Shown: positions 1,338-59,666 of the stretch, piece after piece
Layout: each line of letters opens with the position of its first letter
Position numbering within the stretch: the stretch's first letter is position 1
Assembly (NCBI GenBank): GCA_041657885.1
Contig: JBBABB010000002.1
Span: 25,483-89,482, forward strand
Length of the DNA: 64,000 nt
From: Minisyncoccota bacterium
GTDB taxonomy: Bacteria; Patescibacteriota; Minisyncoccia; Phycocordibacterales; UBA9973
Reading direction: 5' to 3'
Position numbers and translations under genes: made by a program
The notes under the pieces: generated by a model
What the model saw: only the letters and a program-made list of their open reading frames with translations
What the model was told of the DNA's origin: nothing
Databases searched by the model: none

Positions 1338-4300
1338 ATTGTTCTTTTATAATTAGAGTGATAACTTTTGTTACAACAGTTTTCTCTTTTGAACCTGAAG
1401 TATTTGAACATGTAAGGATGTAAGTAGTTGTTACGATTGGAGATACTATACGAGTACCTTGTTTTGTTCCCCCCGTATCAAATCCAGTACCAGTACAAGA
1501 ATCAGCTAGAGGTGAATCCCATGCGAGAGTTGATGACCTTCCTTCAAAGATTGTAGATGGATTTGCTTCAAATATAGTAGTATCACTTGGAGCATCTATT
1601 ACGCATTTTGCTGGTAGTGGTAATAGTTGCCAGTGTGTAGTAGGAGCACAGCCTGCTGTCACTGATAATGTTTTCAATGACAAAGCCCCGCTATATAAGG
1701 TGAGTATTTTCTCAACACCATAAACCAGAGAAAACGTTGCAGTTCCTGAAACTGCTGTCGTTGAAGGGACTATAGGACTAGTTCCATAACTTGCATCCAC
1801 TCTAGAATTACCAATTTTGTTTGTTACAGCCCAATCTAATTGAGCATCATTACAACTACTATTTCCTTCTGTAATTGAGCAACCACCCGAAGAAAGAGTT
1901 CCACTTGGAGTGACGCATTTACTCCCATCCCAAAATGTTTGAGGGGTGTCAGTACAGTCCGCATTAACTGTTTCTCTCTTTAATTCTACACCATTGTGAT
2001 AAAGATAAAATATTCTTCCTCCGCTAACTGATGTGTTTCCAACATTATAATTTACTGCGCCTGCGTTTGTTGATGAAACTCCTGTTCCTCCACCTCCGAC
2101 AATCGTATTACTAGGTTCTGTCGTAACAGCAGAAACAGAATTTACCGGATAAATTGTATTCCAACTTATATTGACAGGGCAACTACTTTCACCTTCACCT
2201 ATTTTACAACTAAGCGGATTAATCGTTAGTGTTCCCGACGGAGGATTACATATACCGTTTCCTAGAGTTGTATTTACCGGACACTCCGTATTTACCGTAA
2301 TCAAACCGGAAGTTCCTACCGCTGTTGTCGTCGTTGTATTTTGACATCGGATATAGTAACCGTAGGCACCAATTCCATTTGGAGAAGTATAAGTTTTTGT
2401 ATTGATTACATCTTTAGTTGCGGAAGTATATGCGGTTAAATCTGTTTGATTATTATCTAACAGTTTACATTGAACTAAACCTGAGTTTGTCGTCGGAGTG
2501 TAAGTGAAAGAAACATTTGTATTTGGAGTTGTATTGTAAGTTAGTGGAGAAGCAGTGACAGAGACAGTGACAGAGGTACAAGTTCCGGCAATAATTACTG
2601 AACCTGCTACACAAGTTGTACATGTTGGAGGGTTGGTTGCTCCATTTGCACAAGCAGTTGGTGTAAATGTAGCACTGATTGTATGATTGGCTGTGATGTT
2701 AGAAAATGTATATGAATTAGCAACAGTGATAGCACTTCCATCAACTGTTAGTGAAGCTATAGAATAATTAGTAATAGGAGTAATAGTATATATTTGATTA
2801 GAACCATATGCAACACTTGTTACGCCTGTTGGTGTTACTGTTCCATTTGCCCCTGATGAAGCTGTGATTGTTGGTCTAACTCGACAAGCTCCAGAAACAA
2901 AGTCACTACCTGTTGCACACGCCGTATTCACCGTAATCAAACCAGAAGTCCCTACCGCTGTTGTCGTTGTATTTTGACATCGAATATAGTAACCGTAGGC
3001 ACCAATTCCATTTGGAGAAGCATAAGTTTTTGTATTGACTACATCTTTAGTTGCGGAAGCATATGCGGTTAAATCTGCTTGATTATTATCTAACAGTTTA
3101 CATTGAACTAAACCTGAGTTTGTCGTCGGAGTGTAAGTGAAAGAAACATTTGTATTTGGAGTTGTATTGTAAGTTGTTGGAGAAGCAGTGACAGAGACAG
3201 TGACAGAGGTACATATTCCACCTATTATTGCAGAACCTGGCGGACAAGTTGTACACGTTGGATAGTTTGATGCTCCGTTTGAACAAATAAGCGAACAACC
3301 ATATATATTGCTAGGTCCAGTAGCATTATAATTAGTATCTGTAGCTGTTGTACATCCATACTTTGGGGCAGAACAAGTCGTTACTGTTCCACAAGTCCAT
3401 TTCCAGAGAAGTGAAGTATCAACAGGAGAACTTGAATTGAGCGTTCCAATTGTACAGGCACTTGTTCCAGTTGGTTCAGGATTTTGTGGGGTAGAACCAC
3501 TCCCGGGACCACAAGAATCAACAGGAACTGGAACATTGGTCCATGAGCTACAGTTATCGCCTTCATTCGATTCTGTAATCACCCCGCCACCCGCCGCTGA
3601 AGTCTTGTCGGCACAAACTCTGATTGAATACGTTCCAGCAGAACTAAATATATGACTAACACTTATAGTATTTGTTCCACTTGCAGCAAGAGTTGTCATT
3701 GAAGTAGATGTTTTGTCGGTAATAGTTCCTCCACCGTTGGCCGATGATGCAACTTGGAAGAAATTACTAAAGCTTGCACCTGTTGAAGCATTACCATTGT
3801 TTGTAATTGTTGAAGTGAAAGTTTGAGCAACGTTTATGTAAGCAGAAGATGGTGTTGGAGCTGAAGCTGTGAGATTAGGAGCAGGGCATGCTGGAGTTGT
3901 GAATGAGGCAGGAGTAACTGTCCATCCCGTTCCAGTTGTATTCGTCGCACAACCATACACATAGTATATAGTACTTGGAGTTAACCCCGTTTTAGACATT
4001 GTATATACCCCAGTTGTTCTACCTCCTTGGTCTACACAAGTTCCTGGTGAACCAATAGTAACAGAAGTCCCGCGGGCAGAAAGAGTGGCAGGAACACCTA
4101 AAGATGTAACATTTGCCCCAACTGTTGCGCTATTACAAGTTACAGAAGTTGCAGTTGGACTTGTGACAGTTGGAATAACTCCGACAGGTGCACATACTGA
4201 TCCATTCCAAGATGTAGCTACCGGAGTTTGAGAACAGCTAACAGTAATCGGTAAACTAGCAAGTATATTATCAACAGAAGTTCCATTATTTTCTCCATCA

Positions 4301-7030: not shown

Positions 7031-7128
7031 ATTTATCCCCACACCTATATTTCCATCAAAAATATATAACAGCAGGGTATTTTTACTAAAAAAGCAGAAT
7101 GATGGGAATATGGGTGTGGGGATTTATC
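7031..7128. repeat. P-family MITE-like element. TIRs atttatCCCCACACCTATATTTCCATC / GATGGGAATATGGGTGTGGGGatttatc.
   Basis: The inverted pair is visible. The inner sequence aaaaagcagaatgatgggaatat recurs in the copy at 20539-20683. Confidence 0.8.
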
Positions 7129-7207
7129 AAGATAAAATTAAACAAATCCGAACAATATGCCTTTGTACTAATTATCTAAGTAATTAAGCATCATGTCAAG
7201 GAGTTTT

Positions 7208-7350
7208 ACCCCCACACCCACTTTTTCATTGCTTTAATATTGTGCCATTAAAATATTCAGAAATATATAAAATATCTTTATAAATCAAGTATAAATAATA
7301 ATATTCCTAAAAAATAAAGCACAATGATGAAAAAGTAGGTGTGGGGGTTT
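7208..7350. repeat. P-family MITE-like element. TIRs CCCCCACACCCACTTTTTCAT / ATGAAAAAGTAGGTGTGGGGG with an AT-rich core of about 100 bp.
   Basis: A perfect inverted repeat of about 21 bp. Confidence 0.8.
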
Positions 7351-7360
7351 ATGCACTTTT

Positions 7361-7527
7361 TATCCCCACACCTATATTTTTATAGATTTTCATCTTTTAA
7401 ATAAAAAACTACTTAATTGGTATTTCTAATAAATTATCGCGTAAAAATAGACATTTTGTATTCAAAATAATAAAAATATAGGTGTGGGGATTTATCCCAC
7501 CTTGCCACCTATATTTTTATTGCAGGC
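7361..7527. repeat. P-family element (tatCCCCACACCTATATTTTtata ... AAAAATATAGGTGTGGGGATTTATC) plus an adjacent partial inverted fragment ccaCCTATATTTTTATTGCAGGC.
   Basis: Inverted TIRs are present. The 3' fragment shares TTTTTATTGCAGGC with the copy at 1209-1287. Confidence 0.75.
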
Positions 7528-7771
7528 TCCTTTTTATCCTAATTTTAAGTTGAAATAATGCCCTGCCGTCCTTTTTTAGAGACGATTCTCTTTTCCTTGC
7601 ATCACTCTCATCAAAATATGATTCATAATATCTAAGTTCAAAAGGACGACGACTTTTAGTGGAAAAAACTTTACCATTATTATGATCCGAGAGCCTGCGT
7701 CGTAAATCATTTGTTGAGCCAATGTAAATATTATTGTCTTTTTTACTTTTTAAAATATATAAGTAGAACAT
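7517..7771 (-). CDS. GIY-YIG nuclease-superfamily small protein (YhbQ/UPF0213-like, 84 aa).
   Basis: N-terminal motif YLYILKSKKDNNIYIGSTNDLRRRLSDHN is a classic GIY-YIG. The gene is flanked on both sides by same-orientation copies of the P-family TIR. Confidence 0.8.
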   Translation of the reverse strand: MFYLYILKSKKDNNIYIGSTNDLRRRLSDHNNGKVFSTKSRRPFELRYYESYFDESDARKRESSLKKDGRALFQLKIRIKRSLQ

Positions 7772-7800
7772 ATATTTATATTATATGATTTATGACTATA

Positions 7801-7826
7801 AAAATATAGGTGTGGGGATTTATCCA
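7801..7826. repeat. Solo P-family TIR (AAAATATAGGTGTGGGGATTTATCC). It contains a perfect DnaA-box-like nonamer TTATCCACA.
   Basis: Identical to the right TIR at 7473-7497. Confidence 0.7.
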
Positions 7827-11965: not shown

Positions 11966-12121
11966 ATTTAATAAATTATTAATAATAAACTAACTACTTA
12001 CAATTATATCATCTCCATTGACTAATTAAAAGCATTGCGGTAACATTACCTATGTAAGTCCGTTCTCGAACCGGGCTTTTATTTTTAGAAAAATAAGGAG
12101 CAAGGCGACTATATTTTTCTT

Positions 12122-12171
12122 ACCCCCACACCTACTTTGGGATTCAATTATCAAAGTAGGTGTGGGGATGG
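12122..12171. repeat. Short P-family hairpin (ACCCCCACACCTACTTTG ... CAAAGTAGGTGTGGGGAT) in the divergent promoter / 5' leader region of nusA.
   Basis: A 17-bp inverted repeat with the same CCCCACACCTA core as the other P elements. Confidence 0.75.
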
Positions 12172-15630: not shown

Positions 15631-15760
15631 CTGGTCTCTATATCGTAGGTCACGTCCCCATATATCATTTTCAATTTAAATACTAAAAATATATTAATTT
15701 CTAAGGTACCAAAATGGATACTTAAAGATTTTTGACAAAAGTGCTTCATCCATATAAGAT

Positions 15761-16903
15761 ATGGATACTATGAAAACAACAATAAAAAAATTAGAAAAAA
15801 GCGAAATAGAAATAGTGGGCTCTATAGAAGTCGCTGAATTTGAGAAATATGAGGGCAAAGCGCTCGAAAGAATCGGCGAGCGCCTTGAACTTCCTGGTTT
15901 TCGAAAAGGGAAAGCCCCGAGTGGAATTGTGAAAGAAAACGTTCAAGAAATGGAACTATTGGAAGAAACGGCAGAGCTTGCATTGATGGATAATTATATG
16001 AAAATCTTGGAAGAGAATAAGATAGATGCTATCGGTCGTCCACAAATCGCAATTACAAAAATCGGAAAGGGTTCTGACCTAGAATTCAAAATCGTCACTG
16101 CTGTTCTTCCAGAAATGAAACTTCCTGATTATAAAAAAATTGCAAAAGAACAAAGTGGAAAAGAGGACAACAAGCGAGAAATTATTGTTGATGAAAAAGA
16201 TGTAGAAAAAGTAATTCTTGACCTTCGCAAAATGCGAGCTGAGCAGGCTCGTGGTAGTAATCATGTTGGCCATGAGAACATGACAGAAGAACCTGCCCGC
16301 CCTCACGATCATTCGGGAGCAGGCGGGGAACATGCAAAAGCCCATGCTGAATCTGCCTCATCGGCAGATAAAATTCCAGAAAGTGAATACCCTATTTTTG
16401 ATGATGCATTCGCAAAAACTTTTGGTGACTTCAAAGATGCTGGGGCATTCAAAGAAAAAATTCGCAGTAATATAAAAATAGAAAAGGAAACCGAGCAGAA
16501 AGACAAACTGCGCCTTGTGATAGTGGAAGAGCTAGTGAAACTAACCGAAGGAGAAATTCCTGAGATTTTAATAGAAAGTGAGATAGATAAAATAATGTAT
16601 CGGCTAGAAGCAGACATCACAAATGCTGGATTAAAACTAGAAGATTATTTAAAACAAATAAATAAAACCGATGCGGATTTGAGAAAAGAATGGCGAGCAG
16701 ACGCAGAGAAACGCGCGAAACTTCAAATGATAATCCATACAATCTCTGAAAAAGAAAATCTAAAACCAACCGAAGAAGAAATTGTAAAAGACGTTACACA
16801 AATCACAACTATGTACAAAGATGCCGACCCCACTCGTGCTCGTTCGTACGTAGAACAAATGTTAGAAAATGAGAAGGTGTTTAAGTTTTTAGAAACACAA
16901 TAA
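15761..16903 (+). CDS. tig: Trigger factor.
   Basis: N-terminal PGFRKGKAP signature. Carries an in-frame GC-rich insertion encoding [13 protein letters not shown] at 16291-16331. Confidence 0.88.
16291..16331. repeat. GC-rich hairpin element, family D (CCTGCCCGCCCTCAC..ATTCGGGAGCAGGCGGGGA), in-frame inside tig.
   Basis: A near-identical copy sits at 44398-44441 in the helicase C-terminus. Both encode ARPH..SGAGGE. Confidence 0.75.
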
Positions 16904-16944: not shown

Positions 16945-17535
16945 ATGCTTATACCAACAGTTATAGAAAAATCACAATTCGGCGAAAGAGCTTATGATAT
17001 ATACTCTCGCCTTTTAAACGAACGCATTATTTTCCTTGGTGGTCCAATAGACGACCACGTCGCTAATTTAATTATCGCTCAGCTTCTTTATTTGGACCAT
17101 ACCGACCCAAAAAAAGATATTTCACTTTATATCAACTCCCCTGGCGGTTCAGTTACAGCTGGGCTTGCAATTATAGACACAATGAATTTTGTAAAAAGTG
17201 ATGTCTCCACAATTTGCGTCGGCATAGCTGCATCAATGGGAGCACTTATTCTTTCATCGGGACAAAAAGGCAAAAGATTTTCTCTCCCAAATTCAGAAGT
17301 TATGATTCACCAAGTTATGGGAGGCACCGAAGGCCAAGCAAGTGATATTGCAATCAATGCAAAACACATCCTTCGCACAAAAGATACTTTGAATAAAATT
17401 CTTGCCCAAAATACAAATAAAAAAATTGACCAAGTTGATAAAGATTCCGACCGCGACTACTGGATGACCGCTGATGAAGCAAAGAAATACAACATCGTCG
17501 ACGACATTATCACAAAACAAAAAGCTGGAAAATAA
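16945..17535 (+). CDS. clpP: ATP-dependent Clp protease proteolytic subunit.
   Basis: GIAASMGA with the active-site Ser, and the MIHQ His. Position is conserved immediately after tig. Confidence 0.95.
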
Positions 17536-17627
17536 AAAATACCAAAAAACCTAGCAAGGTCTTTCCTCTAGTATCCCCGAGGTAAGTCCTTGCTGGGCTT
17601 TCTATTTGTTGCATTATTTGTTGCATA

Positions 17628-18704
17628 ATGCTACAATTAGTGCAACAAATGATTAAATTAACAGAAAGACAAAAAAAAATATTAGGATTTATAACAGAAA
17701 ATACCCAAATCGGTATCTCAGAAATTCTTGAGTTTATAAACAAAAATGAGTTAGAAATTACTCGTTTTTCTATTATCCGTGATTTAAATATACTTATTGA
17801 GAATAACCTAGTAAAAAAAGTGGGTGGTGGCCGTTCTACAAAATATACACCAAAGGAAAATGATACTCTCCATAAATATATTGATATTGATGATTATTTC
17901 AAAAAACCACAAGATGAGAGGGTTCTTATCTCAAAAAACTTTGAATTTAACATTTTTGAAAAAATAAATAATTTATTTACAAAAGAACAACTAGAAAAAA
18001 TAAACGTTCTTAACAATAAATTTAGAGAAAATATAAATAAAATTTCTCCGACCATAAAAAAACTAGAAATGGAGAGATTTATCATAGAATTATCTTGGAA
18101 ATCATCGCAAATAGAAGGAAATACTTACTCGCTGCTGGATACAGAATATTTAATCAAAAATAAAATTGAAGCTGAAGGACATAAAAAAGAAGAAGCCATT
18201 ATGATTTTGAATCATAAAATTACTTTAGATTTTATAAATAAAAATACTTCTTATTTCAAATCAATATCTATAAAAAAAATAGAGGAGCTACATAAACTTA
18301 TAACGGAAGGATTAGGAGTCAATCATGGAATTAGAAAATCTCCAGTCGGGATTACGGGGACAAATTATATTCCGCTTGATAATGAATATCAGATAAAAGA
18401 AGCTATAAAAAAAATGACTGAGAGAATAAACAAAGAAGTAGATCCAATTATAAAAGCATTCCTATCTTTATCTATTATTTCTTATATACAACCATTTGAA
18501 GACGGAAATAAGAGAACAGCGCGACTACTCGCAAATGCGATACTTATCGCTCACAATTACTGCCCACTATCATACAGAAGCGTCAAAGAGGTTGATTATA
18601 AAAAAGCAATTTTAGTGTTTTATGAGTCTCACAATCTTGATCCACTAAAAAGAATGTTTGTTGAGCAATTTGAATTCGCTATTAAAAATTATTTTAGAAA
18701 ATAA
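17628..18704 (+). CDS. Fic/Doc-family protein with an N-terminal wHTH. Its core motif is the non-canonical QPFEDGNKRTAR.
   Basis: Fic fold motif .PF.DGN.R..R is present, but the catalytic His is Gln and the second Gly is Lys, which is Doc-like. wHTH: LTERQKKILGFITENTQIGISEILEFI. Confidence 0.75.
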   Translation: MLQLVQQMIKLTERQKKILGFITENTQIGISEILEFINKNELEITRFSIIRDLNILIENNLVKKVGGGRSTKYTPKENDTLHKYIDIDDYFKKPQDERVLISKNFEFNIFEKINNLFTKEQLEKINVLNNKFRENINKISPTIKKLEMERFIIELSWKSSQIEGNTYSLLDTEYLIKNKIEAEGHKKEEAIMILNHKITLDFINKNTSYFKSISIKKIEELHKLITEGLGVNHGIRKSPVGITGTNYIPLDNEYQIKEAIKKMTERINKEVDPIIKAFLSLSIISYIQPFEDGNKRTARLLANAILIAHNYCPLSYRSVKEVDYKKAILVFYESHNLDPLKRMFVEQFEFAIKNYFRK

Positions 18705-20521: not shown

Positions 20522-20538
20522 AATAATGTAATTCGGGG

Positions 20539-20683
20539 CTTGCCCCCACACCTATATTCCCATAGCTTTTATTCTGTTAAGCAAAATTCCTAATCATTTC
20601 ATATTTTTGATTGAATTATAGAGTTATAACCTTTTTTTATTGAAAAAGCAGAATAATGGGAATATAGGTGTGGGGGCTTGTAT
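20539..20683. repeat. P-family MITE-like element. TIRs cttgCCCCCACACCTATATTCCCAT / ATGGGAATATAGGTGTGGGGGcttg.
   Basis: A perfect inverted repeat of about 25 bp. Internal sequence is homologous to the copy at 7031-7128. Confidence 0.85.
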
Positions 20684-23847: not shown

Positions 23848-25407
23848 ATGCAAACAAACAATTTTAAAATCCCCAAATATGTTACACATGTAACATCCAC
23901 TCTCGAAAAAGCCGGTTTCGAGGCTTTTCTAGTTGGTGGGTGTGTTCGTGATCTAATTATGAGTAGAGAACCGAAGGATTGGGATATTACAACTAATGCC
24001 AAACCAGAAGAGATAATCCCTCTATTTGAAAAGACTATATATGAAAATAAATTTGGAACTGTCGGAGTAGTTCTCCCCCTTACCCCTCCGGCTTCCAGCC
24101 ACCTCCCCTTAGCAGGGGAGGAAAAAACCATAGTAGAAGTTACGCCATACCGAACTGAGGCAAAATATAGTGATTTTAGGCATCCAGATGAAGTTAAATT
24201 CAGCGACAACATAGAAGACGACTTAAAAAGACGTGATTTTACAATAAATGCAATGGCTTACGCGCCCGCCATAGCTTCAGCAAAGGAAGGTAATTTTTCT
24301 AAAGGACATCTCATTGACCTTTATAAAGGACAAGAGGATATAAAGGACAAAGTAATTAGGACAGTGGGAGCCCCAAAAGACAGGTTCAATGAAGATGCTC
24401 TTCGCATGCTTAGAGCAGTTAGATTGTCAACTCAACTCAATTTTGCAGTTTCATATGAAACCATGCAGGCCATTTCTGACGGCGCAGAACTGATTAAAAA
24501 CATATCTTTTGAAAGAATCCGCGATGAATTTACTAAGATTATAATGTCTAACGACCCTGTGGTGGGAATTGGCCTTCTTTCTAAATTAGGACTCCTAAAA
24601 CACATTATTCCTGAATTAGAAGAGGGAGTTGGCTGTGAGCAAAAGGGTGAGCATATATATGACGTTTGGGAGCACTTACTTCACGCCCTTGATCATGCTG
24701 CCCAAAAGGGGTGGTCTCTGGAAGTTAGACTCTCGGCCTTGTTTCATGACATTGGCAAACCCAGGTCTAGAAGAAAGGGGGAGAAAAAGGCCTATACTTT
24801 CTATGGGCATGAAGTAATTGGCTCACGAATGACCCAAAAGATTATGGAGCGCCTAAAATACCCAAAGGAGACAACGGAAATGGTCATTCGTTTCACGAGA
24901 AACCATATGTTCTTCTCTGATACTGAGAAAATAACCCTTTCGGCCGTCCGTCGTATCGTTCAACATGTTGGACCCTCCGACGCTAAAGCTATGGCGGGCA
25001 AAGAAGAAAATCATCCTATCTGGGACCTTATGAAAGTTCGTGAATGTGATAGGGTAGGGATGAAAAAGAAAGAAGCCCCTTATCGCCTAAGGAAATACCA
25101 CGCTATGATTGAAGAAGTTCTTCATGACCCGATATCTGTCGGCCAACTTGCAATTGATGGGAAAATAATGATAGAGGAGTTACACATGAAACCCGGACCA
25201 AGAATGGGGTGGATTTTGAATGCACTTCTTGAGGAAGTTCTGGATGACCCAACTAAAAATACGGCTGAACATCTATCCGAACTTGTAAAATCTCTAGATA
25301 TGCTCGGCGACGCGGAACTTAAAACGCTAGGGGAGAGAGGAAAAGAGAAAAAAGATGAACTTGAGAAAGAAGAAGTAGAAAAGCTCCACAAAAAGCACGG
25401 AGTATAA
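23848..25407 (+). CDS. cca: CCA-adding tRNA nucleotidyltransferase with a C-terminal HD domain.
   Basis: GGCVRDLIMSREPKDWDITT head motif, RRDFTINAMAY, HD motif LFHDIGKP. Contains an in-frame GC-rich family A insertion (..LPLTPPASSHLPLAGEE..). Confidence 0.9.
   Translation: MQTNNFKIPKYVTHVTSTLEKAGFEAFLVGGCVRDLIMSREPKDWDITTNAKPEEIIPLFEKTIYENKFGTVGVVLPLTPPASSHLPLAGEEKTIVEVTPYRTEAKYSDFRHPDEVKFSDNIEDDLKRRDFTINAMAYAPAIASAKEGNFSKGHLIDLYKGQEDIKDKVIRTVGAPKDRFNEDALRMLRAVRLSTQLNFAVSYETMQAISDGAELIKNISFERIRDEFTKIIMSNDPVVGIGLLSKLGLLKHIIPELEEGVGCEQKGEHIYDVWEHLLHALDHAAQKGWSLEVRLSALFHDIGKPRSRRKGEKKAYTFYGHEVIGSRMTQKIMERLKYPKETTEMVIRFTRNHMFFSDTEKITLSAVRRIVQHVGPSDAKAMAGKEENHPIWDLMKVRECDRVGMKKKEAPYRLRKYHAMIEEVLHDPISVGQLAIDGKIMIEELHMKPGPRMGWILNALLEEVLDDPTKNTAEHLSELVKSLDMLGDAELKTLGERGKEKKDELEKEEVEKLHKKHGV
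24076..24127. repeat. GC-rich element, family A copy (reverse complement), in-frame within cca.
   Basis: Reverse complement ggttttTTCCTCCCCTGCTAAGGGGAGGTgGCtgGAAgCCGGAGGGGTaagggg matches 1294-1337 and 59572-59666. Confidence 0.75.
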
Positions 25408-28312: not shown

Positions 28313-29386
28313 TTGAATATGAATGAAAATATATTTAAAAAAGAAGATGTCGTAGAAAATCTTTCTGCTTCTCAAAAAGCAATAGAGATGGCTAAAAAAA
28401 TGAATGACCCTCGTATTTGGTCGACGGTTCTTAATAGACCTGATGTTTCTCCTAACGAGGCAATCCATCTTGTTTGTGATATAACTAGTAGCATCGACAT
28501 CAACAATATGATCGACATGATATATGTTATTTTAAATAGGGATGATGTTACACCTAAAGATGCTCTCAGACTTGCAGGAGAAGCTAATTATTATAAAGCT
28601 TGGAATCTTGCACTCGAAAGAGAAGATGTTTTAGAATTATTAAACAGGGGCCCAGTTGATGAAGTAATAGAAATCGCAAAAGAAGTCAACGACTGGAGAG
28701 TTTGGCGAACTGTACTTAGTAGGATTGATATATCTCCTGAAAAAGTTATTGAGCTAGCAGGTGTGGCAAAGGATGATGGAGATTTATGGCAGACGATACT
28801 TAATAGAGATGATGTTAACAAATTTATAAAAGAAAAAACTCCACAAGAAGTAGCTATATTAGCTAAAGAAGCAAAAAGCATCGATCTCTGGTTAAATATA
28901 ATTAATAGAAATAATCTTACCCCTCAAGAAGCTATTGCTTTTGCAAAAGAAGCGAAAGATGAAATAATCTGGAGGCATGTGCTTGACAGAGATGATATCC
29001 CTCCTCAGGAAGCTATCAATCTAGCTGAAAGTGTTAATAACCAACACACATGGAGAGGATTACTGAACAGAGATGATGTTAAAGAGTTAATCAATAAAAA
29101 GACCCCAGAAGAAGTTATTGAGATGGCAGAAAAAATCAATTATTCTGAGTTTAGCGAAATTATCTTTAAGAGAGAAGACATAAAAGAGTTAATCAATAAA
29201 AAGACCCTCGAAGAAACGATTACACTGGCGGAAAAAATTAAAAATACTGATTTATGGAAAATTGTTCTTAATAGAGCCGATATCACACCTGAAAGAAGTT
29301 TGGAATTAGCTAAAAAAATAGACCGACGTGATGTTTGGAAAGTTGTACTTGACAGAGATGATGTTCAAAAATTATTAAATGGATGA
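28313..29386 (+). CDS. Tandem-repeat protein (357 aa) with about 10 copies of a 33-aa unit W..VLNRDDV.P.EAI.LAKEAKD.
   Basis: The repeats are visible in the translation. No known family is recognised. Confidence 0.7.
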   Translation: MNMNENIFKKEDVVENLSASQKAIEMAKKMNDPRIWSTVLNRPDVSPNEAIHLVCDITSSIDINNMIDMIYVILNRDDVTPKDALRLAGEANYYKAWNLALEREDVLELLNRGPVDEVIEIAKEVNDWRVWRTVLSRIDISPEKVIELAGVAKDDGDLWQTILNRDDVNKFIKEKTPQEVAILAKEAKSIDLWLNIINRNNLTPQEAIAFAKEAKDEIIWRHVLDRDDIPPQEAINLAESVNNQHTWRGLLNRDDVKELINKKTPEEVIEMAEKINYSEFSEIIFKREDIKELINKKTLEETITLAEKIKNTDLWKIVLNRADITPERSLELAKKIDRRDVWKVVLDRDDVQKLLNG

Positions 29387-29434: not shown

Positions 29435-30085
29435 TTATTTCTTCTTTTGAAAAAGAGTTTCAAGTAATGCCACCTTATCTGGTTCGCCGACGAATTCAAT
29501 ATTTTGCTCAATCGGGTTTAGTTGGTGATTAAAAATATTTTTCATTTCGTCTTTATTGAAAAAATGATAATGAACACCATATTTTTGAAATTCTCCACTT
29601 TTTGAACCTTTTGGAAAAAATTCAAAAAAGTGTTGCGTCTCTCGAGAAAGAGATGTGTTTAAGTAAAATCCTCCGGGTTTCAAGACACGGCTTATTTCAC
29701 TTGCGTATTGTTCCCAATCTTCTTTATATAAATTCTCCATTAATCCAAAATCACAAACCCCATCAAAACTATCATCAGTAAAAGGAATATCTAGCGCGCT
29801 TCCTTCCACAAATTTTAATTTGCCCTCAAGTCCCCAGTTCTTTACATCTTCATTTGTTTTTTTAACTATATTACTTTCAAAATCAAGACCAATTACTCGA
29901 TAACCTGCATCAACTAATTGTTTTGCAAAAAGTCCACGTCCAGAGCCTACGTCTAAAATAAGCGCGCCTAACGGGAGTTGTTCCATAAGCATTTTCCCTC
30001 TATCTTTCATGGGAAGATGAGTCCAAATATCTGAACCAGTCCTATACGCCGTCTCAAAATATTCTTTGTGTTTGTCGTAATCCAT
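29435..30085 (-). CDS. Class I SAM-dependent methyltransferase.
   Basis: Motif I ILDVGSGRGLFAKQLVDAGYRVIGLD. Confidence 0.8.
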   Translation of the reverse strand: MDYDKHKEYFETAYRTGSDIWTHLPMKDRGKMLMEQLPLGALILDVGSGRGLFAKQLVDAGYRVIGLDFESNIVKKTNEDVKNWGLEGKLKFVEGSALDIPFTDDSFDGVCDFGLMENLYKEDWEQYASEISRVLKPGGFYLNTSLSRETQHFFEFFPKGSKSGEFQKYGVHYHFFNKDEMKNIFNHQLNPIEQNIEFVGEPDKVALLETLFQKKK

Positions 30086-30233
30086 ATGTTTATTATAACA
30101 CTACACAACAAATAAAAACACGAAGTAAAAATGTTCTCGAGCGAACCCTTTCGCAGGCTGTCGAGCCGAGAAGAGAAATTTTTCAGCAGAAAAATATTCG
30201 TGGTGAGTCCGAGAATTTTTTTATGGAGTGTTT

Positions 30234-31223
30234 TTATTTGCTATGAAATTTCTTATGCACATCTCGAAGTTGTTTATCTGTAACATGAGTATATATCTGA
30301 GTGGTTGCAATATTTGCATGGCCGAGCATCATTTGAACTGAACGGATATCGGCACCATTAGAAAGTAAATCCGTCGCAAACGAGTGGCGAATAACGTGAG
30401 GTGTAACTTTTTTTGAGATACCGGCAACTATTGCATAATATTTTACAATGCGTTCTACAGAGCGGGGAGTAAGACGATTTGTATTAGAGGTCGTACCTCT
30501 AGTGCTCCCGAGGTCCGACCTCTGATTTCTTGAATACTGTATAAATAATGGTTCATCCATATCCTTGCGAGCTTTCAGATATTCACGAATTGCATTTTTT
30601 GCAGAATCGGACAAAAACACAACTCGAACTTTTTCTCCTTTACCACGGACAGAGAATTCATCTTTGGATAAATCCAAATCTCGGTCAAGAGAGCAAAGTT
30701 CGGACAAACGTAACCCTGTTGAGAAAAACAATTCTAATATCGCTTTATCTCGTAAAATTTTCTGTGTTTTAGAGGTCAGATCTCTAGTGCTCCCGAGGTC
30801 TGACCTCTTTAATAATTCATTTGGTGCATTCAATAATCTATTGAGTTCATCAACGGATATTAAATCAAGCGAGCGCTCTTTTATTTTTGCTAGGTCTATG
30901 CGGTCGGGAGGTAGGGAAGTAATATCTCTTTTCATTAAATATTTGAGAAATGAGCGAAGGGCAATCAAGTGATAATTCTGAGTATTTTTCTTTAGTGTAC
31001 TTGATTGTTGTCCACTAACTTTTACTCCCGGCTGACGATTAAGGAACAGGCGAAATTCACGAATCTTTTCGTCAGTTATTTCTTTTGGTCCCGAAATTTT
31101 GGCAAATTCAAAAAAGCGACTTATATAATGGTCATAATTATTAACCGTTTTTAAACTATTGCCTTTCTCAATTTCAACATGTTCAAGAAATTCTCTTTTT
31201 AATTGTTCAAGTTCGGTAGTCAC
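30234..31223 (-). CDS. Tyrosine recombinase, XerC/XerD-like.
   Basis: C-terminal RHSFATDLLSNGADIRSVQMMLGHANIATTQIYTHV. Carries two in-frame palindromic family E insertions. Confidence 0.88.
   Translation of the reverse strand: MTTELEQLKREFLEHVEIEKGNSLKTVNNYDHYISRFFEFAKISGPKEITDEKIREFRLFLNRQPGVKVSGQQSSTLKKNTQNYHLIALRSFLKYLMKRDITSLPPDRIDLAKIKERSLDLISVDELNRLLNAPNELLKRSDLGSTRDLTSKTQKILRDKAILELFFSTGLRLSELCSLDRDLDLSKDEFSVRGKGEKVRVVFLSDSAKNAIREYLKARKDMDEPLFIQYSRNQRSDLGSTRGTTSNTNRLTPRSVERIVKYYAIVAGISKKVTPHVIRHSFATDLLSNGADIRSVQMMLGHANIATTQIYTHVTDKQLRDVHKKFHSK
30485..30525. repeat. Family E palindrome (AGAGGTCgtACCTCTAGTGCTCCCGAGGTCcGACCTCT), in-frame within the recombinase gene.
   Basis: Outer arms AGAGGTC..GACCTCT are a perfect inverted repeat. 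Encodes ..RSDLGSTRGTTSNT. Confidence 0.8.
30770..30812. repeat. Family E palindrome, second copy (AGAGGTCAGAtCTCTAGTGCTCCCGAGGTCTGACCTCT).
   Basis: About 90% identical to 30485-30525. Encodes ..RSDLGSTRDLTSK. Confidence 0.8.
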
Positions 31224-31560
31224 ATTTACATTATATCATCTCTCCAGTCTAATGTCGCAAAATAAAAAATCAAGCCGAACCTCGTGAGAGATTCGGCTTT
31301 TAGATTTGTTTCAAACAAAAACTTGGGCACTCAAGACCCGGACCGTTTTGATTTCGATAAGCTCTTGCAAGAAACGTTACTGGTAATGGCATGCCAGGAC
31401 TTTGACGAATTTGATGAACTCAGTTGAGCAATCATAGGACATGTCCTCCATTAAATTTTGTCCAACATTTAGGGGTGCTGGGCTTTCCCCAAAGAACTGT
31501 TTGAATCCAATGATAGTATATAGGTAATATTGGGATAAATCAAACAAAAACACAGAGAGG

Positions 31561-31589
31561 TTGCATTTATTAACAATTTGTGCTAGTAT
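31561..31589 (+). promoter_or_regulatory. Promoter of rpsO: TTGCAT-17-TAGTAT. The ATG lies only about 10 nt downstream, so the mRNA is near-leaderless.
   Basis: Hexamers at 31561-31566 and 31584-31589. ATG at 31599. Confidence 0.5.
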
Positions 31590-31598
31590 ATACTCACG

Positions 31599-31859
31599 AT
31601 GTTAACAACGAAGAAAAAGCAAAATATTATAAAAAAGAATCAGTTACACGACAAAGATACTGGTAGCCCTGAAGTGCAGATTGCTATTTTGAGCAAAAGA
31701 ATCAACGAGCTTGCTGGACACCTAAAGGAACACAAAAAAGACAACAGTTCCCGACGTGGATTGATAAAGATGGTAGCTGACCGAAGAAATCACCTCAAAC
31801 ATCTTGAAAAGACCGACAAGGAAAGATTTATGTTTGAGACCCAAAAATTAAAAGCATAA
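31599..31859 (+). CDS. rpsO: 30S ribosomal protein S15.
   Basis: [38 protein letters not shown]. Confidence 0.93.
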
Positions 31860-42416: not shown

Positions 42417-42434
42417 AATGCTACAATAGGAGTC

Positions 42435-44456
42435 ATGCGATATCTTGATTCTTTGAATGAAAAACAAAAAGAGGCAGTTCTTTATACGGATGGGCCTCTT
42501 TTGATTGTAGCTGGGGCTGGAGCAGGGAAGACGAAAACATTGACTCACCGAATAATTCACCTTATCCACAAAGGAGTAAACCCGAGCTCAATATTGGCAG
42601 TAACCTTTACAAATAAGGCCGCAAAGGAAATGCGGGATAGGGTTATGGGATTGTTGGAAGATAGGGAGCATGGAGTTAGTGCGCCCGAGCGAAGCGAGGG
42701 CGCCCCATTCGTCTCCACCTTTCACTCACTTGGGGTTCATATTATAAAAGAAAATTCTCATTTGATAGGTTTGAATAAATATTTCACGATTATAGACGAG
42801 AGCGATGCGCTGAGCATCATCAAAAGCATAATGAAAGAACGCGACATAGATACAAAACAACATGAGCCAAGAAAAATAAAATCAATTATTTCAAAGTCAA
42901 AAGGTGACTTTATTACAGTAGATACATTTAGTGCCAATGCAAAAAGTGCTGTGCAAAGTATCGTCGCAATGATTTGGCGAGATTATGAAGCAAGATTGAA
43001 AAAAGAAAAAGCATTGGACTTCGACGATTTACTTCTTGAGACAGTTTTGATTTTAAAAAAATATCCGGAGATAAAACAAAAATATCAAGAGGAGTGGAAA
43101 TATCTTCATATAGATGAGTACCAAGATACGAACGAAGTTCAATATGAAATGACAAAACTTTTAGTCGGAAAAGAAGAAAATATTTGTGTTACGGGAGATT
43201 GCGATCAATGTGTGTATTCATGGCGAGGTGCTAGCATCAAAAACATGTTGCACTTTGAAAAAGATTATCCAAACGCCAAGATAGTAATACTCGAACAAAA
43301 TTACCGCTCAACAAAAAATATTATTGAAGCGGCAAATAGTGTTATTGAGAAAAATGTTTATCGCGTGCCTAAAATTTTATTTACGGAAAATGTGAAAGGG
43401 GAGGAGATTACGATTTGCGAAGCTTATGATGAACAAAGTGAAGCAATATTTGTGGTAAAAAAGATAGACGAATTTTTAAAAGAAAATAATCCCGAAGATA
43501 TCGCGATACTTTATCGTGCAAACTTTCAATCAAGAGTTTTAGAAGAGGCATTACTTGATAAACAAATTCCTTATCAAGTACTTGGAGTAAAATTCTTTGA
43601 ACGAAAAGAAATTAAAGATTTGCTCGCATACATTCGCCTCTCTTACAATAAAGAAAGTTTGTCGGACATAAAAAGAATAATAAATATTCCAACTCGTGGA
43701 ATAGGGAAGACCACAATCGCAAAACTTTTTGCGGGGACTACAAATGATTTACCAAAAGGAATGCAAATAAAAATTGGAAAATTCTATGAGCTTGTTGACG
43801 GCATACGATTGTATATTGACTCTCATAAACCATCTGAATCTGTGAAATACGTGATAGAGAAAAGTGGACTAAAAGAGGAGCTTTCTCACGGCACGAGCGA
43901 CGAACAAGAACGCTTGGAAAATATGATGGAATTGGTAACTTTAGCTATAAAATATGACAATATTCCAGACGGTGAAGGAATGGAAAAACTACTTGAAGAT
44001 GCATCTCTTGCAAGCGACCAAGACACTCTGATGCACCCCATTAAAAACCGCGAGGGATCACAAGGACCCTCTGTTTCTAACGGGACAGGTAAGGGAAATG
44101 GCGTGAAGTTAATGACAGTGCATGCATCGAAAGGTCTTGAGTTTAAATATGTTTTCATCACGGGGCTTGAACAAGATTTATTCCCACATACAAAAGGAAA
44201 TTCAAAAACAAAAGAAGACAACGAGGAAGAGAGAAGATTATTTTACGTGGCCGTCACTCGAGCAAGGGAAAAATTATTTTTATCTTATGCATCACTCCGA
44301 ACAATTTTTGGAATGAAACAAGTGAACAGCCCAAGCGAATTCATTTACGATATTCCCGCACACTTAACAATTTTTGAACAAGCATATTCTTCAAGGGGAC
44401 CTGCCCGCCCTCACAAAGATTCGGGAGCAGGCGGGGAGAAAGTGGTGTATTTATAG
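42435..44456 (+). CDS. pcrA: UvrD/PcrA-family ATP-dependent DNA helicase.
   Basis: Motif I AGAGAGKTKTLTHR, Ia TFTNKAAKEM, II LHIDEYQDTN, plus later motifs. The C-terminus carries a family D insertion (..ARPHKDSGAGGEKVVYL). Confidence 0.92.
   Translation: MRYLDSLNEKQKEAVLYTDGPLLIVAGAGAGKTKTLTHRIIHLIHKGVNPSSILAVTFTNKAAKEMRDRVMGLLEDREHGVSAPERSEGAPFVSTFHSLGVHIIKENSHLIGLNKYFTIIDESDALSIIKSIMKERDIDTKQHEPRKIKSIISKSKGDFITVDTFSANAKSAVQSIVAMIWRDYEARLKKEKALDFDDLLLETVLILKKYPEIKQKYQEEWKYLHIDEYQDTNEVQYEMTKLLVGKEENICVTGDCDQCVYSWRGASIKNMLHFEKDYPNAKIVILEQNYRSTKNIIEAANSVIEKNVYRVPKILFTENVKGEEITICEAYDEQSEAIFVVKKIDEFLKENNPEDIAILYRANFQSRVLEEALLDKQIPYQVLGVKFFERKEIKDLLAYIRLSYNKESLSDIKRIINIPTRGIGKTTIAKLFAGTTNDLPKGMQIKIGKFYELVDGIRLYIDSHKPSESVKYVIEKSGLKEELSHGTSDEQERLENMMELVTLAIKYDNIPDGEGMEKLLEDASLASDQDTLMHPIKNREGSQGPSVSNGTGKGNGVKLMTVHASKGLEFKYVFITGLEQDLFPHTKGNSKTKEDNEEERRLFYVAVTRAREKLFLSYASLRTIFGMKQVNSPSEFIYDIPAHLTIFEQAYSSRGPARPHKDSGAGGEKVVYL
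44398..44441. repeat. Family D GC-rich hairpin element, in-frame at the helicase C-terminus.
   Basis: gaCCTGCCCGCCCTCACaaagATTCGGGAGCAGGCGGGGAgaa, about 90% identical to 16291-16331 in tig. Confidence 0.75.
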
Positions 44457-44589: not shown

Positions 44590-45477
44590 ATGATTCATAA
44601 AGCGAAAAAATCAATGGGGCAGAATTTTCTTAAGTCCAAACCGGCACTCAATATGATGTGCGAGGCAGGAGAGGTAAATAACTCCGATACTATTCTTGAA
44701 ATTGGTCCGGGGAAAGGAGTACTGACAGAAAAACTTTTAGAAAAGGCGGGGAAGGTGATAGCGATTGAAAAAGACCGAGAACTATTTGAATTTTTAAAAG
44801 AAAAATTTGGAGAAGAAATAAAAAATAAAAAATTAATTTTATTAAATGAAGATATATTACAGTTTGAGTTCCCCTCCCCTTTGGGGAGGGCTGGGGAGGG
44901 GTTCCTAATTAAGAACCTCCCCTCATTCCCCTCCAAAGGAGGGGAGGAAATCAATTCTTATAAAATCATCGCCAACATTCCGTATAATATTACCGGCTCA
45001 ATTTTAAAAAAGTTTCTATCTTGCGAGAATCAACCAGAAAGAATGGTTCTCTTAGTGCAAAAAGAAGTCGCGGAAAGAATTGTCACTCGCGATGGCAAAG
45101 AAAGTATTTTGTCACTAAGCGTGAAGGCATACGGGACTCCGAAATACATAATGAAGGTTCATAAGCGATTTTTCTCACCAGCTCCTAAAGTAGATTCGGC
45201 TATTATTGCAATCAATAATATTTCTAGACAGAATTTTCATACAAAAAATGAAGAAAATGTGTTTTTTGGCTTGGTTAAAACAGGTTTTGCTCACAAAAGA
45301 AAAGTTCTTCGTAAAAATCTGGAAACTAAGGAAGTCGGACCCTCCTCGTCGGCGGGCATGCTTCCAAAGATTGATGAGATTTTTGAAAAATTAGGAATTA
45401 ATCCGAATGCTCGCGCCGAGGATATCAAGTTCGAAAAATGGCTTCTGATTTCTCGTCTTTTATCCACAGATATCTAG
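44590..45477 (+). CDS. rsmA: 16S rRNA (adenine1518/1519-N6)-dimethyltransferase RsmA/KsgA, with an in-frame insertion of about 27 aa.
   Basis: MGQNFLKS, EIGPGKGVLT, NIPYNITG. The family B palindrome encodes EFPSPLGRAGEGFLIKNLPSFPSKGGEEI just before the NIPYNI motif. Confidence 0.9.
   Translation: MIHKAKKSMGQNFLKSKPALNMMCEAGEVNNSDTILEIGPGKGVLTEKLLEKAGKVIAIEKDRELFEFLKEKFGEEIKNKKLILLNEDILQFEFPSPLGRAGEGFLIKNLPSFPSKGGEEINSYKIIANIPYNITGSILKKFLSCENQPERMVLLVQKEVAERIVTRDGKESILSLSVKAYGTPKYIMKVHKRFFSPAPKVDSAIIAINNISRQNFHTKNEENVFFGLVKTGFAHKRKVLRKNLETKEVGPSSSAGMLPKIDEIFEKLGINPNARAEDIKFEKWLLISRLLSTDI
44868..44949. repeat. Family B GC-rich palindromic element of about 82 bp, in-frame inside rsmA.
   Basis: TTCCCCTCCCCTTTGGGGAGGGCTGGGGAGGGGTTCCTAATT | AATTAAGAACCTCCCCTCATTCCCCTCCAAAGGAGGGGAGGAA. 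An intergenic reverse-complement copy lies at 56449-56540. Confidence 0.85.
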
Positions 45478-56449: not shown

Positions 56450-56540
56450 TTCCTCCCCTCCTTACCAAGGAGGGGAATGAGGGGAGGTTCTTAATTAATT
56501 AGGAACCCCTCCCCAGCCCTCCCCAAAGGGAAGGGAATCC
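56449..56540. repeat. Family B GC-rich palindromic element, intergenic copy (reverse complement of the rsmA copy).
   Basis: TTCCTCCCCTCCTTaccAAGGAGGGGAATGAGGGGAGGTTCTTAATTAATTAGGAACCCCTCCCCAGCCCTCCCCAAAGGGaAGGGAA. Confidence 0.85.
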
Positions 56541-59571: not shown

Positions 59572-59666
59572 TACACCCCCTCTGCTTTTAGCATCTCCCC
59601 CTTCGCAGGGGGCGAGGAATTCTTCCTCCCTTGCGAAGGGGAGGTGTCCAAAGGACGGAGGGGTGA
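59572..59666. repeat. Family A GC-rich element, full two-armed palindromic copy of about 95 bp.
   Basis: ACACCCCCTCTGCTTTTAGCATCTCCCCCTTCGCAGGGGGCGAGG-aattc-TTCCTCCCTTGCGAAGGGGAGGTGTCCAAAGGACGGAGGGGTG. Confidence 0.8.

Follow-up and report, generated by a model that had tools for sequence, protein, structure and literature searches.

The 64,000-nucleotide stretch of contig JBBABB010000002.1 from a Minisyncoccota bacterium analysed here (the window) contains one tyrosine recombinase gene, a XerC/XerD-like gene referred to below as xer, which carries within its coding sequence two copies of a short palindrome designated element E (Table 1). The deduced protein matches the Phage_integrase catalytic domain of Pfam (8.9e-40) as well as the N-terminal SAM-like domain Phage_int_SAM_1, and its closest relatives of solved structure are XerA, XerD, and XerH. 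In all the related contigs fetched, xer is flanked on one side by rpsO, a NYN-domain gene and the gene for PNPase, and on the other by a methyltransferase gene or a gene of the exo/endonuclease-phosphatase family. The catalytic residues (Arg172, His276, Arg279, His302, and Tyr311) are invariant across 46 aligned xer orthologs. Close Xer homologs with 80-93% identity are plentiful in metagenomes, and those that are named come from metagenome-assembled genomes (MAGs) of Candidatus Nomurabacteria or Paceibacterota. The host of element E is an ordinary, syntenic chromosomal housekeeping Xer.

Two copies of a palindrome are read in frame within xer

The two E copies are identical at 34 of 38 positions and stand in direct orientation, with their starts separated by 285 nt or 95 codons. 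Both are read in one and the same frame, each contributing 12 residues of the form RSDLGSTR(G/D)(T/L)TS to the protein. The site-1 copy encodes RSDLGSTRDLTS (residues 140-151) where a linker joins the N-terminal domain to the catalytic one; the site-2 copy encodes RSDLGSTRGTTS (residues 235-246) in a catalytic-domain loop between the strand PLFIQYS and the helix starting RLTPRS. These placements were derived from alignment to the solved XerA and XerD structures, and an AlphaFold2 model of the Xer protein with a mean pLDDT of 56 was left unused. A preliminary description of the window had reported two palindrome copies lying in frame in a recombinase gene, which the coordinates and the reading frame now confirm. 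It had also located them correctly, with ranges a few bases too wide compared with those in Table 1, and had called their arms perfect, which is true of the outer 7 nt and not of the full 14-bp stem.

For each E copy, the predicted fold is a 14-bp stem that has a single mismatch and is closed by a 10-nt loop, with a folding energy of -21 to -26 kcal/mol and z-scores of -5.3 to -6.4 relative to shuffled sequences. The element is 55-61% G+C in a window of ~35% G+C. Each arm is a palindrome on its own (AGAGGTCnGACCTCT) and a drawing as two small hairpins is equally possible; owing to this self-symmetry, the one-stem and two-hairpin folds are not separable by covariation. At the codon level AGG TCN GAC CTC mirrors GAG GTN NGA CCT, and on the reading favoured below the translated peptide would follow from the palindrome as its by-product. 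The 38-mer, its 15-nt core and its half-sites had zero matches in shuffles of the window, which excludes a chance origin of E. An assembly artefact was likewise ruled out, as the same inserts are present in independent JGI, ENA, NCBI, and Logan assemblies.

The inserts are lineage-specific and vary independently at the two sites

The DNA examined comprised the 64-kb window and about 130 kb of related contigs, the contigs compared being given L numbers such as L001, and the two loops were surveyed in the best 120 xer orthologs, which are 80-93% identical. Both loops are short in 46 of these 120, the modal protein length being 311 residues. In the short state, site 2 reads SRNG(A/S/G)K(G/S)NRL and site 1 is a linker of 14-17 residues. 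Fourteen orthologs carry an E-type peptide at site 1, 21 carry one at site 2 and 6 do so at both. A longer peptide, SDLGAKSKNNKTLGPTYG, which is encoded by a long variant of the element described below, fills site 1 of 13 orthologs and site 2 of 3. In other orthologs the same loops are filled by other short peptides such as SPKQGLG, SRQGLDS, NLSAQAG, or SPTSKNS; the SPKQGLG-type insert corresponds to a separate hairpin, which reads TCTGCTCCTAAGCAAGGCTTAGGAGCAGA in L024. Several linkers that appear empty look like eroded remnants, for example PTQDRENSKTSG beside PTQDPERSDLKGFRGPTSG.

The insert states are scattered over a neighbour-joining tree from which the insert columns were left out. Near-identical Xer proteins differ in whether an insert is present, and inserts come and go independently at site 1 and site 2. 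Codon alignments show filled and empty sites at the DNA level: E is missing from site 1 of L002 and L003, and from site 2 of L001, L003, and L021, which have AAT GGT GCC AAG GGC AAC in its place. In the alignment with XerA (4a8e), insert 2 coincides exactly with a 13-residue gap, and insert 1 comes just ahead of the catalytic domain as aligned. The proposal that both inserts are specific to this lineage is thus borne out by the ortholog alignment.

Element E is conserved at the nucleotide level beyond its flanks

Outside the inserts, the xer genes compared are 75-89% identical at the DNA level. The site-1 E copy of the window is nonetheless identical at 38 of 38 positions in L001, whose xer is 82% identical, and the site-2 38-mer recurs without a change (38/38) at site 2 of L017 and at site 1 of L021; identity between the window and L002 is 36/38. 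Within E, 10-12 of the 12 third codon positions are identical. The corresponding figure for the flanks, taken as 15 codons to either side, is 44-57% in three of the four pairs and 67% for L008; for the remainder of the gene it is 48-58%, or 69% in the case of L008, whose gene is partial. This excess had a binomial P of 0.0016-0.02 in four comparisons and 0.07 in a fifth.

Recombination between alleles is evident in one pair. The xer genes of the window and L017 are 100% identical over ~300 nt (about 30290-30590) across site 2, with identity falling to 59-90% elsewhere and site 1 occupied by a different insert family in each, a mosaic that indicates recombination between xer alleles. With the exception of this pair, co-transferred flanks do not account for the identity of E. 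The two copies within some genes share derived features; in L022, the loop GGGACCTCTA is present at both sites and the copies differ at 2 of 38 positions.

Among 11 distinct copies of E, pairing is kept in 90.9% of stem cells. Three combinations (G-C, A-U, and C-G) are seen for pair 8-31 and two for pair 9-30 (G-C in five copies, A-U in four); the covariation score was reached by none of 500 shuffles. The E copies of L004 have accumulated 8-10 changes, mostly from GC to AT. These dynamics fit copies that are young or repeatedly homogenised and that decay later, and they fit selection or function at the nucleotide level too.

A longer form of the element and relatives outside xer

At 60-72 nt, the long variant is a palindrome whose 19-25-bp stem carries an A-rich loop of ~20 nt and whose arms contain ATAGGTCnGACCTAGGG. 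It aligns with E across both arms, and the core AGGTC.GACCT.GGG is invariant in this alignment (A7). Judged by this alignment, E, at ~38-45 nt, looks like the long element with most of its loop gone. We built one covariance model from E (R1) and another from long copies only (R2), the E-values of both being rough; R2 detects E copies at 16-31 bits.

In L025, a long-form copy lies in the spacer that separates a dksA/traR-like gene from a ComM-like one. The spacers orthologous to it in L002, L003, and L004 contain GC-rich hairpins of unrelated sequence, a different one in each genome, and terminator-like spacers seem to be exchanged between hairpin families. In the window itself, a diverged intergenic relative forms a hairpin followed by a T-run on the minus strand. 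It scores 21.7 bits with R1 (rough E-value ~3e-4, filters off) and is identical to E at 27 of 38 positions; the run of identity CCTCGGGgAtACTAGAGG covers the loop, which makes the match more than that of a generic hairpin.

At first impression, an exact-motif scan had confined the family to xer, a view that was overturned by the L025 locus and the covariance models. The copies in L025 and in the intergenic region of the window suggest that the family is dispersed, though the near-consensus short form is concentrated in xer. Looking elsewhere in the genome, as the preliminary description had suggested, turned up the diverged relative outside the recombinase gene in the window. Members of the E/long family number only 2 to 4 in the 64-kb window. 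Among species-representative genomes, the narrow pattern GACCTCGGGAGCAYTAGAG gave only one match, a chance one in an Actinomycetota MAG, and viral contigs scanned for the cores of E and the long form gave 0 matches.

A further GC-rich hairpin stands just upstream of xer and looks like a terminator. It has CGAACCTCG...GAG.TTCG in common with the L008/L025 form of E, and it also scores as an intrinsic terminator on the minus strand. It is possibly a distant, short-looped relative of E, or else a generic GC-rich hairpin; the assignment is uncertain.

Other hairpin families occur in frame in housekeeping genes

Element E is not the only hairpin translated in the window: in-frame families spanning 36-45 nt are found in the genes for trigger factor, a UvrD-like helicase and the CCA-adding enzyme (Table 1). 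The 36-nt family is read in the same frame in trigger factor and the helicase, giving PARPH..SGAGG in both. Set against the L003 ortholog, the trigger-factor copy shows as a clean insertion of 12 codons, and no target duplication accompanies it. A double-hairpin family with two intergenic copies in the window recurs in a variable loop of the CCA-adding enzyme, and the same family sits in the same loop of the L023 enzyme. In the L024 enzyme that loop holds three consecutive perfect hairpins (3474-3498 and neighbours); one of them, TTCCCCTAAGACCGTCTTAGGGGAA, is similar to the SPKQGLG-type insert in the xer gene of L024. The L004 gene (15147-16781, minus strand) has a 31-residue insert elsewhere in the enzyme, and this insert folds as one long hairpin. 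The hairpins in trigger factor, UvrD and the CCA-adding enzyme indicate that in-frame inserts are a general feature of the lineage and that E is one family among several.

Table 1. Element E, its relatives and other hairpin families, with the host gene. Positions are those of the window unless a contig is named; R1 is the covariance model of E, and E-values are rough.
Feature	Position	Strand	Context	Details
Host gene, XerC/XerD-like tyrosine recombinase	30234-31223	-		329 aa, GTG start
E copy, site 1	30771-30808	gene on -	xer	+ strand reads AGAGGTCAGATCTCTAGTGCTCCCGAGGTCTGACCTCT; 45-nt unit including tails 30765-30809; R1 61.2 bits
E copy, site 2	30486-30523	gene on -	xer	+ strand reads AGAGGTCGTACCTCTAGTGCTCCCGAGGTCCGACCTCT; 45-nt unit 30480-30524; R1 63.6 bits
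Long-form copy	L025 3457-3519		75-nt spacer, dksA/traR-like to ComM-like gene	perfect 19-bp stem; 76.9 bits
Diverged E relative, intergenic	17555-17592	-	between ClpP-like ORF 16945-17535 and ORF 17628-18704	
Terminator-like hairpin	31270-31301	+	~50 nt upstream of xer start	R1 20.1 bits, E-value ~1e-3
36-nt GC-rich hairpin CCTGCCCGCCCTCACnnnnATTCGGGAGCAGGCGGG	16292-16327		trigger factor, ORF 15758-16903 (+)	in frame
36-nt hairpin, same family	44400-44435		UvrD-like helicase, ORF 42417-44456 (+), near C-terminus	encodes PARPHKDSGAGG
Double-hairpin GC-rich family, intergenic copies	1289-1336; 59617-59664			
Double-hairpin family, in-frame copy	24082-24126		CCA-adding enzyme, 23848-25407 (+), variable loop	encodes TPPASSHLPLAGEE

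Several additional repeats were observed in the window. The CCA-adding enzyme gene has two more GC-rich, lineage-specific inserts, at ~24255-24291 and 24964-25006. The 9-mer TCGGGAGCA occurs exactly four times, at 16313, 30503, 30788, and 44421, where 0.16 occurrences are expected; the four sites fall in the two E copies and the two copies of the PARPH family, on the host coding strand and in differing frames, and the 9-mer may be a shared recognition motif or a coincidence. Between the stop codon of xer and the downstream methyltransferase gene (30104-30245) lies a 36-nt imperfect inverted repeat, 78% complementary with its arms 70 nt apart, enclosing a GC-rich stretch (30132-30177) that could be a structured spacer or a small RNA. 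On the plus strand at 28313-29386, an open reading frame (ORF) of 357 residues is made up of ~34-residue tandem repeats (..W..VLNR.DV.P.EAI.LA..), which correspond to DNA repeat families D3 and D6. Inverted repeats at 44872-44934 and 56469-56535, 98-100% complementary and ~63 nt in total (CCCTCCCCTTTGGGGAGGGCTGGGGAGGGGTTCCTAATTAAGAACCTCCCCTCATTCCCCTCC), flank an 11.5-kb segment; the pair could bound an invertible or mobile segment, or could be two copies of another hairpin family. The palindrome family CCCCCACACCTA...TAGGTGTGGGGG has many copies, mostly intergenic (among them 1207-1288, 7080-7825, 12120-12169, and 20538-20675), of which several are clustered within 800 nt at ~7.1-7.8 kb.

Origin of the inserts

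We consider it probable that element E is a non-autonomous palindromic repeat of the kind represented by the Rickettsia palindromic elements (RPEs), copied at the DNA level and kept where it does no harm. According to this proposal, family E, being the short form of a 60-72-nt element with the shared arm core AGGTCnGACCT, would propagate as DNA in this lineage of Patescibacteria, and surviving copies would be those in intergenic spacers, where they have a terminator-like look, or in frame in surface loops able to accommodate an additional 12-24 hydrophilic residues. The permissive places in Xer would be the linker between the domains and a single catalytic-domain loop, where the repeat would simply be transcribed and translated and its palindromic arms would dictate the mirror-like peptide RSDL...(R)GxTS; the peptide would be tolerated, not useful. 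After arrival, a copy would stay palindromic for a time through paired changes in the stem. Later it would be re-homogenised, replaced by other hairpin families via recombination between xer alleles, or subject to GC-to-AT decay.

As to the mode of copying, no target-site duplication was defined at the xer junctions; the motifs AATACA/AAC flank the site-2 copies of L002, L022, and L008, inconsistently. The lack of a visible duplication both there and at the clean trigger-factor insertion argues against transposition of the classical type seen in MITEs, the miniature transposable elements with inverted repeats. The options left are single-strand hairpin transposition, as in the system of repetitive extragenic palindromic (REP) sequences and RAYT, template switching, and gene conversion.

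Several observations weigh against dispersal as a tolerated repeat. In both DNA and metagenome scans, near-consensus short E has turned up nowhere but in xer, where the two junctions and the frame are the same each time, which is odd for a randomly inserting element. Every exact occurrence of AGGTCnGACCT in 183 kb of related DNA is in xer. A 20-nt pattern searched against 241 million metagenome records gave 16 matches, five of them with the whole element, and all five are xer genes with the element at site 1 or site 2 in that frame. The copies outside xer are only two, a long form in another genome and a relative with 27 of 38 positions identical and a rough E-value. Because the loops differ beyond the insert, neither a target-site duplication nor a clean empty site could be defined in xer. 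No candidate for a mobilising enzyme turned up, no search having been aimed at one. Finally, the excess conservation, which includes the 10-nt loop, suits a functional nucleic-acid element equally well.

There is a small chance that the clade carries an undescribed class of 36-72-nt hairpins that are actively copied into protein loops. E and the long form might then be homing-like: they would repeatedly occupy the same two junctions in xer genes that are 20-25% diverged, and their sequence would stay identical where the flanks are near synonymous saturation. If true, this would mean either site-specific copying, possibly through recognition of the AGGTCnGACCT dyad by a protein, or a selected nucleic-acid function tied to xer.

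A rival view, in which the hairpins are functional cis-elements of xer, acting as RNA or DNA structures and maintained by selection instead of being selfish repeats, seems to us unlikely. Roles of this sort would be, for example, control of xer mRNA stability or translation, or binding of Xer or another dimeric protein to AGGTCnGACCT palindromes. Nucleotide conservation far above that of the flanks, at third positions and in the loop, speaks for such a function, as do the compensatory changes in the stem and the repeated occupation of these two loops by unrelated families (E, the long form and the SPKQGLG-type insert). Often a single family or sub-variant fills the two sites of a gene (L022 and L026 are examples), and each arm is a dyad-symmetric 11-15-mer with a variable central base, like an operator site. 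However, a conserved function is difficult to reconcile with the lack of inserts at both sites in the 46 short-looped orthologs and at one site in many others, with the free decay of the L004 copies, or with family members in intergenic spacers unrelated to xer. On the mRNA strand, moreover, no T-run follows either E copy, the only hit to an intrinsic terminator being a weak antisense match at 30510-30522, and the region 30000-31600 gave no Rfam match at an E-value of 1 or below.

It is quite unlikely that the palindromes originated where they now stand, through template switching or fold-back repair within loops that evolve fast, and then spread by local gene conversion with no transposition. 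Such an origin would explain why there is no target-site duplication and why the net change in length is smaller than the element. The arms are self-complementary, and paired changes that appear compensatory could arise in one step. The site-1 and site-2 copies within a gene are often near-identical, as in L022, and the mosaic xer alleles show that local recombination takes place. In-place birth does not, however, account for the same family in the unrelated L025 spacer and in the intergenic copy of the window. Other families of similar size are also common to unrelated genes or regions (trigger factor and UvrD; the CCA-adding enzyme and intergenic sites), which needs dispersal.

The preliminary description had found it unusual that a recombinase gene should carry two copies of its own palindromic guest, and had raised the prospect of deletion or inversion between them. 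We judge it very unlikely that E is mobilised by, or is a recombination substrate of, the host Xer, possibly with a programmed 285-nt deletion, and nothing links Xer to its spread. Two direct copies in a recombinase gene and a near-consensus short form seen only in xer in the metagenome scan would suit such a relationship, but the gene is the syntenic housekeeping Xer, and both relatives of E and analogous families are present in spacers and genes that have no connection with recombinases. In dif and att core sites, two recombinase-binding arms of ~11 bp surround a 6-8-bp centre, and attC sites carry RYYYAAC/GTTRRRY boxes. By its sequence E resembles none of these, having 14-bp arms, a 10-nt spacer and no GTT/AAC box pair at its ends. 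As the two copies are direct repeats, only deletion, not inversion, is expected between them. A deletion would take out residues 140-234, which include the catalytic Arg172 and the Lys-bearing beta-hairpin, and no deletion variant was seen, the best 120 orthologs all being at least 308 residues long. Intragenic rearrangement between the copies seems unlikely.

The remaining alternative, named in advance in the preliminary description, is that this Xer family has the repeated peptide as a structural motif, duplicated and conserved; although the same 12-residue peptide occurs twice in frame, this has virtually no probability and is refuted by the ortholog alignment: the peptide is missing from most orthologs and from solved Xer structures, unrelated peptides replace it in others, and the conservation of synonymous sites is unexplained by protein-level selection.

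Comparison with known systems

Two kinds of array were considered and rejected as counterparts of E. TIGR arrays of the candidate phyla radiation (CPR) consist of tandem 36-nt units with edge and loop repeats beside a Nop-domain Tas gene (PMC12045711), whereas the E copies are isolated, 285 nt apart, and inside a conserved ORF. A CRISPR repeat was discarded likewise, as E is isolated and not in an array.

Like MITEs, E bears inverted repeats and would be non-autonomous and dispersed, and MITEs too are at times fused in frame to ORFs. MITEs, however, are 50-500 bp long and have terminal inverted repeats derived from insertion sequences together with target-site duplications, whereas E is essentially all stem-loop and no duplication could be made out at the xer junctions, nor is there one at the 36-nt insertion in trigger factor. 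E does not match the description of a MITE.

REP sequences are described as imperfect GC-rich palindromes of 20-40 nt with terminator-like intergenic copies and no target-site duplication (PMC3733652). They are high in copy number. They are also extragenic, with a GTAG or CGTC tetranucleotide at one end (PMC3733652). E is similar to REP sequences, and to the bacterial interspersed mosaic elements (BIMEs) associated with RAYT, in its size, its imperfect GC-rich palindrome, its terminator-like intergenic copies and its lack of a duplication. It differs in that the best E copies are intragenic and the family has only 2 to 4 members in 64 kb; neither GTAG nor CGTC occurs on either strand of the E 38-mer, which sets it apart from the REP/BIME class.

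The double-hairpin elements of Allomyces mitochondria belong with a wider set of mitochondrial GC-rich hairpin repeats. Such repeats invade AT-rich mitochondrial genomes, including their coding regions, where they are in frame and translated, according to three reports (PMC6649704, PMC2800124, PMC8811140). The likeness to E extends to short GC-rich repeats in an AT-rich genome and to alternative one-stem and two-hairpin folds. These repeats are organellar and eukaryotic, and they are the nearest analogues in composition and in being translated. In the mitochondrial DNA of Nematomorpha, both arms of a palindrome are reported to encode conserved protein segments (PMC6649704), whereas the E inserts are dispensable additions to loops.

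In behaviour, the closest known system is that of the RPEs, non-coding palindromic repeats that lie in intergenic regions and in frame in unrelated housekeeping genes, are translated and tolerated, and form several families per genome (PMC10969869). Like them, E is an in-frame palindromic repeat in a functional gene and is absent from orthologs, and the E/long, PARPH-type and CCA-enzyme families lie in genes, in spacers, or in both, and are translated when in frame. The RPEs differ in being ~100-150 bp long and specific to Rickettsia, whereas E is 38-45 nt, its long form 60-72 nt, and both are from Patescibacteria; E has few copies, with those close to the consensus concentrated in a single gene. 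On length, E falls outside the Rickettsia families RPE-1 to RPE-10, and we claim no sequence relationship with them. Our search of the full-text literature found no description of such elements for CPR/Patescibacteria.

DNA repeats that live in coding genes without harming them are known mainly from Rickettsia and organelles. Here the same phenomenon would appear in an ultra-small CPR bacterium, with elements one third as large, and would affect core genes, namely those for Xer, trigger factor, the UvrD-like helicase and the CCA-adding enzyme. Hairpin repeats may thereby offer one concrete source for many of the unexplained lineage-specific insertions in CPR proteins, and they call for caution in annotation and structure prediction, as 'loops' of 12-24 residues may be repeat DNA. 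The dense presence/absence polymorphism of the family could serve as a marker of recombination between strains. Should the excess conservation of the xer copies stem from an active copying mechanism, that mechanism would be new.

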